Assembly: GCA_030390025.1 (NCBI GenBank)
Contig: CM059427.1
Span: 19,096,001 to 19,160,000, forward strand
DNA: 64,000 bases
Reading direction: 5' to 3'
DNA from: Squalus acanthias
Lineage: Eukaryota
The first letter of the stretch is position 1, and each line of letters begins with the position of its first letter. Shown piece by piece: positions 42,164 to 53,154 of this stretch. The position numbers and the translations under genes were made by a program. A model generated the notes under the pieces. It made no database searches and was not told the origin of the DNA. It worked only from the letters and a program-made list of their open reading frames with translations.

Positions 42164-44260
42164 TGAATCATAGAATGGTGCAGCACAGAAGGAGGCCATT
42201 TGGCCCATCATGCCTGTGCCAACTCTTTGCTAGAGCTATCCAATTAATCACACTCCCCTGCTCTTTCCCCATAGCCCTGTTTTTAAAAAAAAAAAAAATT
42301 CTCCAAGTATTTCTAATTCTCTTTTGAATGTTACTACTGAATCTGCTTCCACCACCCTTTCAAGCAGTGCATTCCAGGTCACCACAACTCGCGGTGTTAA
42401 AAAAAAAAAAAAAAAAAAAGTTTCCTCATGTCGCCTCTGGTTCTTTTTCCAGTCAGCTTAAATCTGCGTCCTCTGGTTACCAGCCCTTCTGCCACTGGAA
42501 ATAGTTTCTCCTTATTTACTCTATCAAAACCCTTCATGATTTTGAACAATTCGGGGAACGTAGGGTCTAATGAGAGGGAGGAACTGAATGAAATCAGTAT
42601 TTGTAGGGAAATGGTGTTAGGGAAATTGACGGGATTGAAGGCCGATAAATCCCCAGGGCCTGATAATCTACATCCTAGGGTACCTAAGAAAGTGGCCCTA
42701 GAAATAGTAGATGCATTGCTGGTCATCTTTCAAAATTCTATAGACTCTGGAACAGTTCCCATGGATTGGAGGGCAGCTAATGTAACCCCACTACTTAAAA
42801 AAGGTGCTAGAGAGAAAACGGGGAATTATAGACCGGTAAGCCTGACATCGGTAGTGCGCAAAATGCTAGAGTCCATTATAAAAGATGTAATAGCAGAGCA
42901 ATTGGAAACCAGTGACCGGATCGGACAAAGTCAACATGGATTTACAAAAGGTAAATCGTGCTTGACTAATCTACTGGAATTTTTTGAGGATGTAACTGTT
43001 AGAGTAGATAAGGGAGAACCAGTGGATGTGGTGTATTTGGACTTTCAGAAGGCTTTCGTTAAGGTCCCGCATAAGAGATTAGCGTGCGAGGTTAAAGCAC
43101 ATGGAATTAGGGGTAAGGTACTGACTTGGATAGAGAACTGGTTGGCAGACAGGAAGCAAAGAGTTGGAATAAACGGGTCTTTTTCTGAGTGGCAGGCAGT
43201 GACTCGTGAGGTACTGCAGGGATCGGTGCTAGGACCCCAGCTATCCACAATATATATTAATGATCTGGACGAGGGGACTAGATGTAATATCTCCAAGTTT
43301 GCAGACGACACAAAGCTGGGTGGGCGTGTGTGTTGTGAGGAGGATGCCGAGAAACTCCAGTATGATTTGGACAGGTTAGGTGATTGGGCAGATGCATGGT
43401 AGGCGCAGTATAATGTGGATAAATGCGAGGTTATCCACTTTGGTGGCAAAAACAGGAAGGCAGATTATTATCTGAATGGCAATAGATTGGGAGAAGGGGA
43501 AGTGCAACGAGACCTGGGTGTCCTTGTGCACCAGTCGCTGAAGGTAAGCATGCAGGTGCAGCAGGCAGTTAAGAAGGCAAATGGTATGTTGGCCTTCATA
43601 GCGAGAGGATTCGAGTACAGGAGCAAGGATGTCTTGCTGCAGTTGTACAGGGCCTTGGTGAGACCACACCTTGAGTATTGTGCGCAGTTTTGGTCGCCTT
43701 ATCTGAGGAAGGATGTTCTTGCCATGGAGGGAGTGCAGCGAAGATTCACCAGACTGATACCTGGGATGGCAGGAATGACGTATGAAGAGAGATTGGGTCG
43801 ATTGGGTTTATATTCGTTGGAGTTTAGAAGAATGAGAGGGGATCTCATTGAAACTTATAAAATTCTAACAGGACTAGACAGACTAGATGCAGGAAGGATG
43901 TTCCCGATGGCGGGGGAGTCCAGAACCAGGGGTCACAGTCTAAAGATAAGGGGTAAGCCATTTAGGACAGAGATGAGTAGGAATTTCTTCACCCAGAGAG
44001 TGGTGAACCTGTGGAATTCTCTACCACAAAAGGCAGTTGAGGCCAATTCATTAAATATATTCAAGAAAGAGTTGGATATATTTCTTAAGGCTAAAGGGAT
44101 CAAGGGCTATGGGGAGAAAGCAGGGACAGGGTACTGAATTTGGATGATCAGCCATGATCTCATTAAATGGCAGCAGGCTCGAGGGGCCGAATGGCCTACT
44201 CCTGCTCCTATCTTCTATGTTTCTATGTATGTTTCTATCTCTAGCCAGTCTCCCCTTAAG
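42164..44260 (-). mobile_element. CR1 3' fragment split by a younger CR1
   Basis: 42164-42548 is a CR1 tail and RT end (LFKIMKGFDRVNKEKLFP). TTTTGAACA resumes as TCTCTAGCCAGTCTCCCCTTAA at 44238 (compare 61165-61192). Confidence 0.75.
42549..44237 (+). mobile_element. Young 5'-truncated CR1 LINE; RT open except for one stop
   Basis: ORFs 42428..43402 and 43415..44137 are in frame, separated by TAG at 43400. YLDFQKAF, YINDL, FADDTK; tail (TTCTATGT)n. Confidence 0.95.
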
Positions 44261-45645: not shown

Positions 45646-45684
45646 AAACACTGGGGGGAATTTTGCCAGCCCTGGGGAGGTGGG

Positions 45685-45878
45685 TGTGGTAACACAATAC
45701 AGCTTCCTGTGACTCGAACTTTATTGCATCACTTCCTGTGATTAGTCCAGGATAAATACTGGACTGATCAGTTGGATCCTGGAGAGGCATAGAGTAAGAC
45801 CTCTTTTGTATGTAGCACCTTTTTAGTTGATTAAAGCTTACTTTAAGTTCACCACGCGTAAGGCTCATTCTTACGACA
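45685..45878 (+). repeat. 5' LTR
   Basis: Direct repeat of 49932-50125; ATTAAA at 45830-45835. Confidence 0.97.
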
Positions 45879-45879
45879 A

Positions 45880-45890
45880 TTTAATCAACT
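45880..45890 (+). promoter_or_regulatory. Putative self-complementary primer-binding site
   Basis: TTTAATCAACT lies 1 nt after the LTR and is the exact reverse complement of AGTTGATTAAA at 45825-45835. Confidence 0.7.
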
Positions 45891-45956: not shown

Positions 45957-48900
45957 ATGGAAAACATCCTTAAACCATCGCGTCTTGACTTGGACCCAAA
46001 CACCCCAGCAGCCGGTAAGGTGTGGAAACACTGGTATTGCACGTTTGACAATTTTCTGGAATATTGTAAGGCTGATGATGACTCAAAGTTGCGGATACTC
46101 ATCAACTGTGTCACCCCGAATGTATTTCAGTATGTGGAGGAATGGGGCAGTTACGAGGAGGCAATTCGGATGCTTAAGAGACTATATGCTAAGACACCGA
46201 ATGAGGTCTATGCCAGACATCTACTCGCTACAGCCCAACAAGGGCCGGAGGAATCCATTGATAAATTCCTCCAAGAGCTTCGCAGACTTAGTATGGACTG
46301 TAACTTTCAGGCGGCCTCAGCTGAGCTGTACCGTGAAGAAATGATCCGTGATGCTTTCATCTGCGGGCTTGCCTCCCCATTTATACACCAGCGTCTACTG
46401 GAAAGTAAGACACTTGAGCTTCACAGAGCTTATGACATGGCTTGCTCTCTAGATCTGGCAAAAAGAAATGCAGACCTTTTATACAGTGCCCAGACCTCGG
46501 TCTGCTGCCTTAACTACAGTCAGGCAATTTAAGAGGCCACAGGTGAACTCTATTAGGGAGGACTTTATCCCTGACGATCAATCTGATGACTTCACTGATG
46601 AAGAGGATGATGACCCCACTGTGGCAGCCTCTTGGCAATCTAAGAAATGCTTCTTTTGTGGTGATGAGTTTCACCCTTGGAAATTCTGCCCTGCTCGCAA
46701 TGCGTTTTGCAGTCATTGCAACAAAAAGGGTCATTTTGCAAAGGTTTGCCTATCAAGAGCCTTTACGAGGGCTTATCAAGCTAAGTCCTACTGAACTGCC
46801 CCGGTAAGGGCCTATCAAGATGTTCCGGCTAAAATCTATCGTGCTTCCTCTTGGGTTTCCTCTCGAAGAAACACACCTAGAGTTTCAGCCACTCTTTGTG
46901 CAACGACACCAATTACAGCTGCTTGTCCTCCGAACCTATTCCATGCAGCTACAAAAGCATCAATTAATGGACATACTTTAGATGCCTTAATTGACTCAGG
47001 TAGCACTGATAGTTTCATTAGGGAACAGATTGTTGCAGAGTTAAAGCTACATGTTTTCCCATCGGACCAGGCAATTGCGATGGCTCAGTCATCACTTAAT
47101 ACCAGAATTTCTGGCTTTTGTATGGTTGAAGTAACACTTAATGGTCACAGGTATCCCTCCACCCGGCTTTCGGTGCTCAGGGACTTATGTACTGATCTTA
47201 TCTTAGGGCTGGATTTTCAAAAGCAGCATAAGAAGCTCACCATTGAGTTCGGCGGATCCAAACCTGAACTCACTATTTCTAATATACTACCTCGATTACC
47301 GTTCTGTGCATTGTCAGCAGCTTCACTGGATGAACCCTCACTGTTTACCAGTATCCCTCCTCGATGCAAACCGATTATAACAAAGTCACGACGTTTCAGT
47401 CAGGAAGACCAGTCTTTTATTGCAGCTGAGATTTCTCGGCTTTTAGCAGAGGATATCATCGAGCCTTGTTCGTCGCCATGGCGCGCCCAGGTCGTTATTG
47501 TTAAGAACCCTCTACAACCTCACAAGAAACGGCTGTGCATTGACTATTCACAGACCATCAATCAATATACGGACTTGGACGCATACCCATTGCCGCGCAT
47601 CGATGATATGGTTAATAAACTGGCTGAGTACACGGTGTTCTCAACATATGATCTGAAAAGTGCCTATCATCAGGTACCCTTGAAGGTCTCAGACAAGCAG
47701 TATACGGCCTTTGAAGCCAATGGACGGCTGTATCAATTTCGTCGCCTCCCCTTTGGGGTCACTAATGGAGTGGCTGTCTTCCAGCGAGCAATGGATGACC
47801 TGGTCAAACAGGAAGACTTGAAGGATACGTTTCCTTATCTGGACAATATTACTGTCGCAGGTCGCAATCAGCGGGAACATGACGCCAATCTCCAACCATT
47901 TTGGGACGCACTCCAGCACCGTAATTTGACATTAAATGCGGCTAAATCCATTGAGTCACAACCAACCATCAACATCCTTGGCTATTGTGTGGGCAATGGC
48001 ATCATTAAACCTGACCCTGAAAGGCTTCGCCCACTCCAAGAACTCCCGCCACCTAAGAATCCGGCCTCCTTGCGCCGGGCCCTCGGCCTGTTTGCATACT
48101 ATGCTAAATGGATTCCTAACTTCTCGGACCGAATCCAACCTCTACTGAAGGCCAGCACATTCCCACTAGACACAGCGGCTGTTGCAGCCTTTAACCTCCT
48201 GAAAAAACAGTTGGAGTAAGCGGCTCTTCACTCCATCGATGAGAGTCTTCCTTTTGTCGTTGAGTGTGATGCCTCGGAGGTGGCGATCTCGGCCACTCTG
48301 AATCAGGAAGGTCGTCCGGTGGCATTTTTGTCCAGGACTTTTCAAGGGGCTGAGCTACATTATCCTCCAGTCGAGAAAGAAGCTACAGCCATCATAGAGG
48401 CAGTACGGAAGTGGAGTCATCTCCTAGCTCGCCAGCACTTTACCTTAATCACGGACCAGCAATCGGTCGCCTTCATGCTCGATAATCGAAAACGGACCAA
48501 AATTAAAAATAATAAAATCCAGCTTTGGCGGCTGGAATTGGCCTCTTTTGGTTACACCATCCACTATCGACCTGGCAAGGAGAATGTGGCTCCGGATACC
48601 CTCACACGAGCATTCTGCTCCGCCATGGCACCCTCTATGCTCGTAGACATCCATGATGGGTTGTGTCATCCGGGCGTTACTCGCATGCTACACTTCGTGC
48701 GGTCCCGAAATCTCCCATTCTCTACCGGGGATGTAAAGATGATGTGCTCGGACTGCAGAGTCTGTGCGGAATTGAAACCTCAGTTTTTCCGCCCCTCGGG
48801 TGGTATACTCATACATGCGACCCAGCCAATGCAACGGCTTAGCATCGATTTTAAGGGGCCGTTGCCCTCTTCAACTCGCAACACTTATCTGTTGACCATG

Positions 48901-49914
48901 GTCGATGAGTATTCCCGTTTTCCGTTTGCCTTTCCCTGCCCCGATATGCTGACGACCACGGTTATCAGCTGCCTTGAGCAGGTATTTGCTTTCTGTGGCA
49001 TGGCATCCTATGTTCATTCGGATCGGGGCCCTTCTTTTATGTCAGGAGAACTCAAGGCCTATCGCTCGGAATGGGGTATTGCTGCCAGCAGAACGACGCC
49101 TTATCATCCGGTCAGGAATGGGCAAGTCGAGCGTTTTAACGCTATCATCTGGAATGCGGTACGTCTGGCTTTGAGATCTCGGGGCCTACCCAACCAGCAA
49201 TGGGAAGCAGTACTTCCAGACGCATTACACTCCACACGGTCCCTCCTTTCGACCGCCACAAATACGACGCCTCATGAACGGTTCTTCCGATTTCAGCGTC
49301 GCTCATCCTATGGGATGTCTCTCCCGTCGTGGCTGACTGCACCGGGACCAGTGCTACTCCGAAGATATGTCCGGGCGTCTAAGAATGACCCCCTGGTAGA
49401 TGAAGTTGAGCTCACTGACGTCAACCCTACCTACGCCTATATTCGGTATCCTGACGGTCGGGAATCTACCGTGTCATTGCGGGATCTGGCTCCCTGCCCG
49501 CCGAAACATAGAGGGACACCAGGGGATGATATTGTACCAGGCACATCTCTGGGCTCGCCAGGTGCCTCTCATCACGATCTGGATCTGACGCCGGCTGGTA
49601 CCTCACTCCAGCGTGCCGACCTGGGGCAGACTGACTATGAGCCCGTCGGGGCTCGCACGCGCAGCCACGATCCACCCCGTACCGTACGCTCGGAAACGGA
49701 TCTGCCACAGCCCTGCCCGACACCCGTTCGGGCACCAGTACACCGTCAGGATCGTCCTGACCCCTCACAGAGCGGGCTGGATCACTCGGACTCTGGTCCA
49801 CGGCCCGCGGCGGGTAAACGGGCTAGGGGCCCTCTACCGCTACGTGAACCCAAACGGGTGCGGCTCTCCCTCGTCCAGCGGCTACGAAATGGAGGGAGCA
49901 TCCCGGCCTCCTAA
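45957..49914 (+). pseudogene. gag-pol polyprotein with one frameshift and two in-frame stops
   Basis: Gag WKHWYCTFDNFL; two CCHC knuckles (CFFCGDEFHPWKFC, CSHCNKKGHFAKVC); protease LIDSGS; RT LPFGV/YLDN; RNase H CDAS; integrase HHCC plus DFKGP/SDRG/VER. Frameshift at about 46480-46530, TGA at 46792, TAA at 48217. Confidence 0.92.
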
Positions 49915-49931
49915 TCTTTTGGGGGGGAGAA

Positions 49932-50125
49932 TGTGGTAACACAATACAGCTTCCTGTGACTCGAACTTTATTGCATCACTTCCTGTGATTAGTCCAGGAT
50001 AAATACTGGACTGATCAGTTGGATCCTGGAGAGGCATAGAGTAAGACCTCTTTTGTATGTAGCACCTTTTTAGTTGATTAAAGCTTACTTTAAGTTCACC
50101 ACGCGCAAGGCTCATTCTTACGACA
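49932..50125 (+). repeat. 3' LTR
   Basis: Preceded by the PPT and followed by the TSD GTGGG. Confidence 0.97.
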
Positions 50126-51284
50126 GTGGGTATGGAGGCGGGACTGCTGGGAAAATGGCAGAAACTGGGAGCGGGTACCGACCCCGCTCCCAACGCCGTG
50201 CCATCTTCCCAGGAGGCGGGTCCCCGACTCGCGCAGGGACCCGTCTCCTCGAAGCAGGAAGGGGATTACAGCCAATTAACTGCCTGTTAACAGGTAGTTA
50301 ACAGGCAGTTTTGAGGCTTATCCCCATTTTACCCCTGCAAGTGCGGGCTTCCCGACGGCTGCGAACCTCACCAGGGTCAGCAAGGCAAGCAGTGGGTCTA
50401 CGGGGGTGAGCGGGATCGAAAAGTCCGCTGTAGAGGTGAGTGATGGGTGCAAGTGTGGAGCGGTAAGTAGGAGAGGTGAGTGTAAACTGTATGAAAAAGT
50501 TTACTTACCTTTGCTTCTTCCTGCAGGCTTCAACCCTTGGGGATCCGGAGAGTCTCGATCTCACCGGCAGAGATGACAGAATGGCTGTTGTCTTCTCAGA
50601 TGCAGCAGCCATCTGCTTTCTGCTGAGGAGAGGGGTTCTGGTGAGTCATTGTGCGAGGGCTCACCTTAGAACAGAGATTCAGTGTTTGACAGCTTCTCAA
50701 AGCTGTCAAACGCTGACAATTCATTTGTCAAAAATCTTTTGACAAATGAAACATCATACGCTGATGTCCTCTGTCACCGGCTTTCCCTTAATTGGCCGGC
50801 TAAGCCCACAGGGCAGGCTTAACAAGGTCAATCAAGGGAAAATAGCGTGGGCTGGCCAGACGTCGTTGGGAGTGGGACTGAAACCTGAAAACCAGCAGTC
50901 CCGCCCCAACACACCCCCATTGAGAAATTCCAGCCCCTTCAGTGTTTCCGTTTCCACCACTTCTGTCGGCAGCGAGTTCCAGGACTGCACGAGTGCAAAG
51001 GCTGCACCATGTCTTGATGGAACAGACTCAATGGTCCAGTTGGTCTGTTGCCCTGTTTGGTATATTTACAAAGGAATTACAGAATGAGCTTTTGAAGTAT
51101 TGCAAGAATTTGACACTTCGATGTTATAATGTCTCTGCTAATCACTGCTGATCTGTACTAGAACGAATGGAAGCTTCTGGATAGCTGTATTCTCGTTCTG
51201 GAACTCTGCAGTCAGTATTTGTACTAATTTTGTTGGACAGAATCTCCCCCAGAATCATTTCCAATTTGTACAGGCCAATGAATG

Positions 51285-52031: not shown

Positions 52032-53154
52032 GTTAGCAGTGAGAGAATCTCCCAGAATTCACAATTTAAACACAGACAAAATCTATTCAAATATTTCCCT
52101 ACATCAAAGACACACTAAGAGCACAGCCGAGACAATGAGATGTGTCCCAGGGGGTCCAACGTGTCAAACCACCTGCTGGCTGCATATCCTGTCAATTTGT
52201 GTTCTTGTGTTAGTCTTTTTAAAAAAAAAAACACCTGGGAAGACCGGCCATGATGTCAAGTCACGTTCTGTATCGTGACATGAACCCGATATCGCGATTG
52301 AGGCCATCCTCATGAGTGCGGAACTTGGCTATCAGTTTCTGCTCTATGATTTTGCGCTGTCGTGTATCTCGAAGGCCGCCTTGGAGAACGCTTACCCGCA
52401 TATCCGAGGCTGAATGCCCCTGGCTGCTGAAGTGTTCCCCGACTGGGAGGCAACCCTCCTGCCTGGCGATTGTTGCGCGGTGTCCGTTCATGCGTTGTCT
52501 CAGTGTCTGCATGGTCTCGCCGATGTACCATGCTCTGGAGCATCCTTTACTGCAACGTATCAGGTAGACAACGTTGGCCGAGTCACATGAGTATGTACGG
52601 TACATACTCATGTGACTCGGCCAACGTTGTCTAACTGATACGTTGCAGTAAAGGATGCTCCAGAGCATGGTACATCGGCGAGACCATGCAGACACTGAGA
52701 CAACGTATGAACGGACACCGCGCAACAATCGCCAGGCAGGAGGGTTCCCTCCCAGTCGGGGAACATTTCAGCAGCCAGGGGCATTCAGCCTCGGATCTGC
52801 GGGTAAGCGTTCTCCAGGGCGGCCTTCAGGATACACGACAGCGCAAAATCATAGAGCAGAAACTGATAGCCAAGTTCCGCACTCATGAGGATGGCCTCAA
52901 TCGCGATATCGGGTTCATGTCACGATACAGAACGTGACTTGACATCATGGCCGGTCTTCCCAGGTGGTTTTTTTTTAAAAGACTAACACAAGAACACAAA
53001 TTGACAGGATATGCAGCCAGCAGATGGTTTGACACGTTGGACCCCCTGGGACACATCTCATTGTCTTGGCTGTGCTCTTCGTGTGTCTTTGATGTAGGGA
53101 AATATTTGAATAGATTTTAAATTGTGAATTCTGGGAGATTCTCTCACTGCTAAC

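Follow-up and report, generated by a model that had tools for sequence, protein, structure and literature searches.

The window analysed here, a stretch of 64,000 nucleotides from the genome of Squalus acanthias, contains a copy of a retrotransposon that we class as Ty3/Gypsy, since its LTRs, target site duplication (TSD), polypurine tract and the pol order PR-RT-RH-IN are all present (Table 1). The two LTRs differ at a single position, 45859. The copy itself is broken: its gag is frameshifted near 46450-46530, and the reading frame is interrupted by stops that end at 46794 and 48219. The family to which it belongs is young and abundant: 40 scored matches to its LTR-leader are near-identical, and 3,158 junctions of the window type between LTR and primer-binding site (PBS) occur in the S. 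acanthias genome, sister families included.

Table 1. Features of the Ty3/Gypsy element, in positions of the window
Feature	Position	Strand	Remarks
5' TSD, GTGGG	45680..45684	+	Identical to 50126-50130
5' LTR, 194 bp, TG...CA	45685..45878	+	One mismatch against the 3' LTR
TATA-like U3 box, lying 74 nt upstream of the 11-mer	45751..45758	+	Possible upstream promoter, inferred
Pair of UGUA motifs, upstream of poly(A) hexamer	45807..45814	+	Located by position
Initiator-like TTAGTT	45823..45828	+	A45825 is the predicted transcription start; Inr-like score, 20 families
Predicted self-primer arm, ending in hexamer ATTAAA (45830-35)	45825..45835	+	Pairing and covariation
Predicted 5-bp hairpin directly following the arm, next to the predicted cut	45836..45848	+	Fold
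Predicted U5 hairpin just before the LTR end	45857..45875	+	Fold
Primer-binding site (lacks TGG), complement of the LTR arm	45880..45890	+	Sequence pairing
gag, frameshifted in the window copy	45957..46794	+	Twin CCHC knuckles at 46648-46689 and 46708-46749
Protease plus reverse transcriptase (with YLDN), between in-frame stops in the window copy	46795..48219	+	Pfam Asp_protease, RVT_1
RNase H and integrase, no chromodomain match	48220..49914	+	Pfam RT_RNaseH, Integrase_H2C2, rve
Polypurine tract	49921..49931	+	Abuts the 3' LTR
3' LTR, 194 bp	49932..50125	+	Functional poly(A) signal predicted at its ATTAAA (50077-50082)
3' TSD, GTGGG	50126..50130	+	Matches the 5' TSD

Upstream of the element (42401-44137) lies what we take, from its translations, to be a LINE-type RT fragment, and downstream (52261-52937) there are two oppositely oriented ORFs that presumably carry a GIY-YIG-like motif. 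In the 5' LTR, the TATA-like box was recognized from GTCCAGG plus a TATA block common to families B and C of the S. acanthias genome; it sits in the loop of a 15-nt inverted repeat (45739-45770) that was not seen in these two families. The UGUA motifs may be upstream poly(A) enhancers. Elsewhere in the genome, one locus (L282; C1:566513, 570760 and 575007) carries copies of the family arranged head to tail, 4,247 bp apart and with single LTRs in common, and tandem pairs resembling this arrangement recur among the family matches.

Pairing between the LTR and the primer-binding site

An earlier note on this DNA had described the lack of a TGG site and, 1 nt after the LTR, an exact 11-nt complement of the LTR, and our check of the sequence agrees. 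TGG is absent at the primer position of the element, and TTTAATCAACT (45880-90) and AGTTGATTAAA (45825-35) are exact reverse complements of each other over 11 bp, with one spacer base (A45879) after the 194-bp LTR and a 44-nt loop between the arms. The inner edge of the pairing is a G.A mismatch and the outer edge consists of two T.T mismatches, followed by two G.U pairs and one A-T pair; the sharp stop of pairing that had been stated thus holds for Watson-Crick pairs. The twin CCHC knuckles, the 5-bp TSD and the lack of a chromodomain match, likewise described earlier, all hold for this copy.

At least 11 perfect pairs at offsets 0-5 were met by chance in 14 of 21,088 window 40-mers and in 39 of 100,000 shuffled leaders, and we estimate the chance of the window pairing at about 0.0005 (range about 4-7 in 10,000), with the LTR taken one base short at its 5' end in the script. 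The segment 45825-45900 folds with a z of -2.85 into the duplex plus two small stems. A sister variant of the LTR (45774-45850 region, runs X1-X9) has about ten differences around the arm and none inside it, and gains an A that would lengthen the pairing to 12 bp.

Relatives and covariation of the two arms

Relatives at E 1e-30 or better make up 1,004 of the 8,000 long proteins scored; of the best 120, those with a named source belong to cnidarians, crustaceans, a mussel and a catshark. None was found in viral contigs. The polyproteins of this clade measure 1,190-1,250 aa. At the RT motif, 89 of the best 120 relatives read YxDN, 27 YxDD and 4 show no motif; the replacement of the second aspartate of YxDD by asparagine occurs also in the young, abundant family of the window (47350-48216). 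Another Gypsy family of the S. acanthias genome (L152, L153, L154, L159, L160) has NQDD at this place, and NQDN in L154. Chromo and SH3_Tf2-1 domains are absent from all 24 full-length relatives scanned, as is any chromodomain match from the window copy.

A quick RT tree of 45 rows gathers 39 of them in one clade (SH-aLRT 98). The other rows are three Gypsy rows of the S. acanthias genome (L144, L155, L153) and three retrovirus-like ones, with no chromovirus; the latter three, used as outgroup only, come from a set of retrovirus-like RTs of the same genome (YVDD; L250, L253-L260, L262-L265), several of which are broken by stops. L144 and L155 have a TGG site and no self-pairing, and families of their kind are, by PBS and Gag, presumably Mag-type. 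The description of the element as Mag-like therefore divides: the Gag, with its twin CCHC, is homologous to that of L144 (hhalign 97%, 23% identity), but the RT is 30% identical to the L144 RT and belongs to the separate YLDN clade of 39 rows, so that in the phylogeny that had been called for it does not nest among the presumed Mag-type RTs of L144 and L155. An origin independent of Tf1/sushi is likely from domain content, in a comparison whose tree held no chromovirus. A DUF4939 search of the S. acanthias genome for chromovirus references, run with no positive control, returned no match, and SH3_Tf2-1 matches carrying an RT were rejected as such references, being retrovirus-like. The motifs YLDN and SPWRAQV were not found in the main texts and machine-readable supplements of two clade surveys (PMC6238403, PMC8556966), so far as these are accessible.

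We collected 80 metagenome loci, with a gag start in 37 and at least 200 nt upstream of gag in 33. At the place of the PBS, an inverted repeat of 11-17 bp is perfect in 24 of these 33, and its sequence differs between loci. Among the other nine, seven have decayed or wobble pairing in register (by eye), one (L095) is truncated and one (L033) has an arm-like motif without a complementary PBS. Loss of complementarity in relatives, one of the observations that the earlier note had named as speaking against its reading, may have occurred in L033. L033 is a single copy for which no second LTR was found; its gag start directly follows the arm-like motif and hexamer (L033:300-400) and begins ATGG, readable as a TGG site.

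Compensatory covariation of PBS and arm, proposed in the same note, is found across families. From 23 representatives, L039, L055 and L064 were left out as kin and L106 as mis-registered by the script; in the remaining 19 families, whose RTs are 43-79% identical to the window RT, on average 8.84 of the 9 PBS positions 4-12 pair with the family's own arm against 4.83 with the arms of other families, an excess reached by none of 100,000 permutations. The PBS 12-mers of these families fall into 17 distinct sequences. These 19 rows were picked for having a repeat, and the unbiased figure is thus the 24 of 33 given above. Close kin show changes on both sides at position 7 (L034/L039) and at position 11 (L088/L055). 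Two further families of the S. acanthias genome pair over 13 and 12 bp, and all three loci obtained after the main analysis over 13-14 bp, against 4-7 bp in the TGG-primed families of that genome and 4-7 bp in 3' flanks. The LTR end was fixed by a second LTR in families A, B, C, L034, L043/L044, L062, L304 and L305, and inferred from the CA before the PBS in about two thirds of families. Within the genome, 36 copies caught by one pattern show ten one-sided changes and no compensated one, which fits decay after insertion and lends no support to self-priming. LTR-PBS pairing is a trait of the whole clade, with nothing special to the window element.

Two side observations belong to these loci. 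In L105 (3425-3500), the loop between the arms of the 5' LTR has the opposite orientation to that in the 3' LTR, as would result from a stem-mediated inversion or from an error of assembly. L303, L304 and L305 are animal-type elements of the clade whose contigs are assigned to bacterial MAGs, probably as contamination from a host.

The primer and its possible sources

Because the site of primer binding determines the LTR end, the primer has to bind at the PBS; the only partner that tracks the PBS across families is the element's own LTR. That an RNA of the element serves as primer, summed over our best reading and the two other self-priming ones discussed below, we hold to be highly probable. 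The signature of tRNA-independent self-priming claimed for this copy is supported by the covariation across families and by the failure of a tRNA-fragment explanation in the PBS-variant count, and Tf1-like self-priming is likely in the window lineage. Our best reading is that this very young Ty3/Gypsy element of a widespread animal clade probably starts reverse transcription from a primer made of the 11 bases predicted to come first in its own transcript.

Several features agree with this reading. First of all, an Inr-like score over 20 families (L106 re-registered by hand) peaks with A exactly 11 nt away from the arm's 3' terminus, at 4.7 of 6 against 2.9 +/- 0.3 elsewhere (z 5.5 for the position 11 register), although the scored columns lie inside the paired arm and shared ancestry among the non-independent families may inflate the value. 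The score is at least 5 in 14 of the 20 families and below 5 in six. Position 10 of the arm is G in 18 of 20 families and position 7 takes all four bases; pairing alone thus does not freeze the arm sequence. Second, the last six bases of the arm are AATAAA or ATTAAA in 12 of the 19 families, in the register used, with variants in the others, and the initiator-like A and the poly(A)-type hexamer noticed at the two ends of the window 11-mer thereby gain comparative support (14/20 and 12/19). Third, stems that begin immediately 3' of the arm show enrichment in the 19 families (77 vs 59.4, p 0.0014); the overall stability of the loop is not enriched across families. A transcription start at A45825 is accordingly likely from comparison, and the Inr-like A 11 nt from the arm end favours, as far as sequence can tell, a primer of 11 nt that would end in the poly(A) hexamer.

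The proposed cycle would run as follows. Transcription would start at A45825, and bases 1-11 of the RNA would fold onto the PBS over the 44-nt loop, with a short stem from base 12. By analogy with Tf1, the element RNase H would cut after the last A of the hexamer, and RT would then copy 45879 back to 45836 (44 nt) and could jump to the 3' LTR via the roughly 16-19 nt between hexamer and poly(A) site, where the first 11 bases would be restored. Plus-strand synthesis would copy the primer into the new PBS, which would explain the joint change of arm and PBS. The hexamer of the 5' LTR would be buried in the duplex and then cut off, so that only the copy in the 3' LTR would direct polyadenylation.

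The primer could also be longer. Perfect pairing runs over 11-17 bp, longer than an 11-nt primer needs, and it is the 3' end of the arm that is fixed while its 5' extent varies over that range. A TATA block is kept in families A, B and C of the S. acanthias genome though the rest of U3 differs; at 74, 92 and 90 nt upstream of position 11 it is too far for a start at A45825 and points to a second possible start. Transcription from about 30 nt after this block (near 45781) would make the arm internal, and a single cut after the hexamer would release a capped piece, about 55-70 nt long, that primes with its 3' end. A fold begun at 45781 retains the duplex, both starts could coexist, and alternative starts have a precedent in Tf2 (PMC5341516, in its accessible text). 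On the other hand, no TATA-like motif occurs within about 190 nt upstream in 15 of 17 families outside the S. acanthias genome, the two others being L050 (26-28 nt) and L044 (153 nt), and the Inr-like signal stands at position 11. We thus consider a longer self-primer unlikely, if by no means negligible.

A second self-priming route would use the copy of the arm in the 3' LTR, with the RNA looped, its 3' end paired with the PBS and trimmed or cut to the hexamer. The arm does end in A residues at the poly(A) signal, and because it is present in both LTRs, covariation in DNA cannot tell which copy pairs. In this route, however, sequence downstream of the hexamer would be lost, strand transfer would need a start well upstream, and both the Inr-like A at position 11 and the stem at base 12 would go unexplained. 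We know of no precedent for priming from a 3' LTR copy, and regard it as quite improbable.

Alternatively, the pairing may only hide the poly(A) signal of the 5' LTR, as a poly(A) hairpin does in HIV-1, while a host RNA such as a tRNA fragment primes. The hexamer lies inside the duplex in most families. Furthermore, the arm plus the next two bases (45825-45837) matches at 11 of 13 positions a tRNA D-arm motif, which would pair with the window PBS through two G.U wobbles and has 55 matches in the S. acanthias genome; the six of these loci examined (L241-L246) include no tRNA gene by ARAGORN. The host tRNA set proved too small for a full fragment screen, with only Lys and Cys plus two doubtful long calls from an Rfam search and 50 stretches, and the count of PBS variants served as the test of a tRNA D-loop instead. 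Plus-strand synthesis copies the primer into the PBS, yet against 3,158 LTR-type junctions in the genome there are two with one tRNA-like change and none with both. A tRNA 3' end as primer needs TGG, absent here, and the 17 distinct PBSs in 19 families each track their own LTR. A host primer is thus, in our view, very unlikely.

Finally, an inverted repeat without function, arising by chance or template switching, hardly deserves credence: both arms are AT-rich, the family A LTR has another hairpin and L105 shows arms able to invert the loop, but the fixed register and the covariation across families with RTs 43-79% identical to that of the window, together with the pairing in 24 of 33 loci and in the three later ones, rule it out unless the relatives were mis-registered.

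With the 11-nt self-primer as the preferred reading, a broader statement can be put forward only tentatively, namely that a large animal Gypsy clade of cnidarians, crustaceans, molluscs and sharks may have acquired self-priming independently of Tf1/sushi, with the same 11-nt primer, and that in it one 11-mer may act as transcription start, primer and poly(A) signal, the fold silencing the poly(A) site of the 5' LTR.

Comparison with known systems

Self-priming has so far been taken as a mark of the Tf1/sushi chromoviruses, with one predicted case in plant Copia, and has been proven only in an unrelated yeast element. In a search of mainly open literature, with the Cigr-1 description outside its scope, we found no report of it in a non-chromovirus animal Gypsy clade, and the accessible parts of PMC2774666 and PMC3391268 hold nothing relevant. 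If our reading is true, the tRNA primer can be dropped repeatedly, including by a broad animal clade with other domains, and an RNase H product of 11 nt may be a constraint common to self-primed elements. In the S. acanthias genome, recent insertions numbering in the thousands would then depend neither on tRNA supply nor be exposed to silencing by tRNA fragments, and it would be clear why tools based on tRNA sites would record these elements as having no PBS. With the primer tied to the poly(A) hexamer, two problems that every LTR element faces would be solved by a single device. The predictions are exact to the base, with the start at 45825 and the cut at 45835/36.

Among animal elements, the Mag lineage (A, B, C/SURL clades) shares with the window clade the homologous twin-CCHC Gag, the 5-bp TSD and the lack of a chromodomain. 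It has a TGG-type tRNA PBS, unlike the window element, and the presumed Mag-type references differ in their TGG sites without self-pairing (L144, L155) and in an RT with 30% identity (L144). Cigr-1 of Ciona intestinalis is about 4.2 kb long and carries a single ORF (about 1,210 aa), with a capsid of SURL type and an RT outside the Mag lineage; by this size and domain mix, the window clade may be the Cigr-1 clade or one of the MolGy clades, which we offer as a lead. Cigr-1 and MolGy clades occur in molluscs and annelids, and the accessible text of the two surveys makes no mention of PBS or priming for them (PMC6238403, PMC8556966). Saci-2/lennie elements are likewise non-chromovirus animal Gypsy elements with a Gag-Pol fusion; they are described, in the available portions of PMC4558846 and PMC12471100, with a tRNA PBS and a mostly 4-bp TSD, and we rejected this identity for the window element on both grounds.

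Outside the chromoviruses, a parallel is the TAR lineage of Ty1/copia (Houba, Osr-1), for which self-priming is likewise predicted from sequence, alongside its occurrence in Tf1/sushi including Tcn1 (PMC6317226, as far as its text is accessible). The TAR lineage belongs to another superfamily, in plants, and self-priming there is predicted only; repeated origins would thus have a precedent.

It is with Tf1, Tf2, Tj1 and the Tf1/sushi group including Tcn1 that the window clade shares a PBS complementary to the own LTR in place of a tRNA site. A chromodomain at the integrase C terminus is usual, though not universal, in the Tf1/sushi chromoviruses; the window clade, in contrast, shows no match to a chromodomain or Tf2-type SH3 in the 24 full-length relatives and carries a twin-CCHC Gag, and its RT fits that of Ty3 no better than a TGG-primed family does (136.7 bits for the window RT vs 149 bits for L144). 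The fission-yeast elements all carry a chromodomain, and a three-duplex 'pretzel' structure is described, according to the portion available of bioRxiv 10.1101/2022.12.06.519325. The central duplex of this structure is present in the window clade. Pairing of the loop with bases downstream of the PBS shows no enrichment (104 vs 107, p 0.79), and a U5 stem ahead of the PBS, predicted for family A, does not recur in every family. The window clade arm ends in a poly(A)-type hexamer; in Sushi the AATAAA lies nearer the LTR end (PMC3601003, accessible part). Tf1 primes with its first 11 bases, and RNase H cuts between bases 11 and 12 (PMC7175516, in the text at hand); the primer predicted for the window clade has the same length, with a stem beside the predicted cut, and by every sequence test except the full pretzel the clade would work like Tf1.
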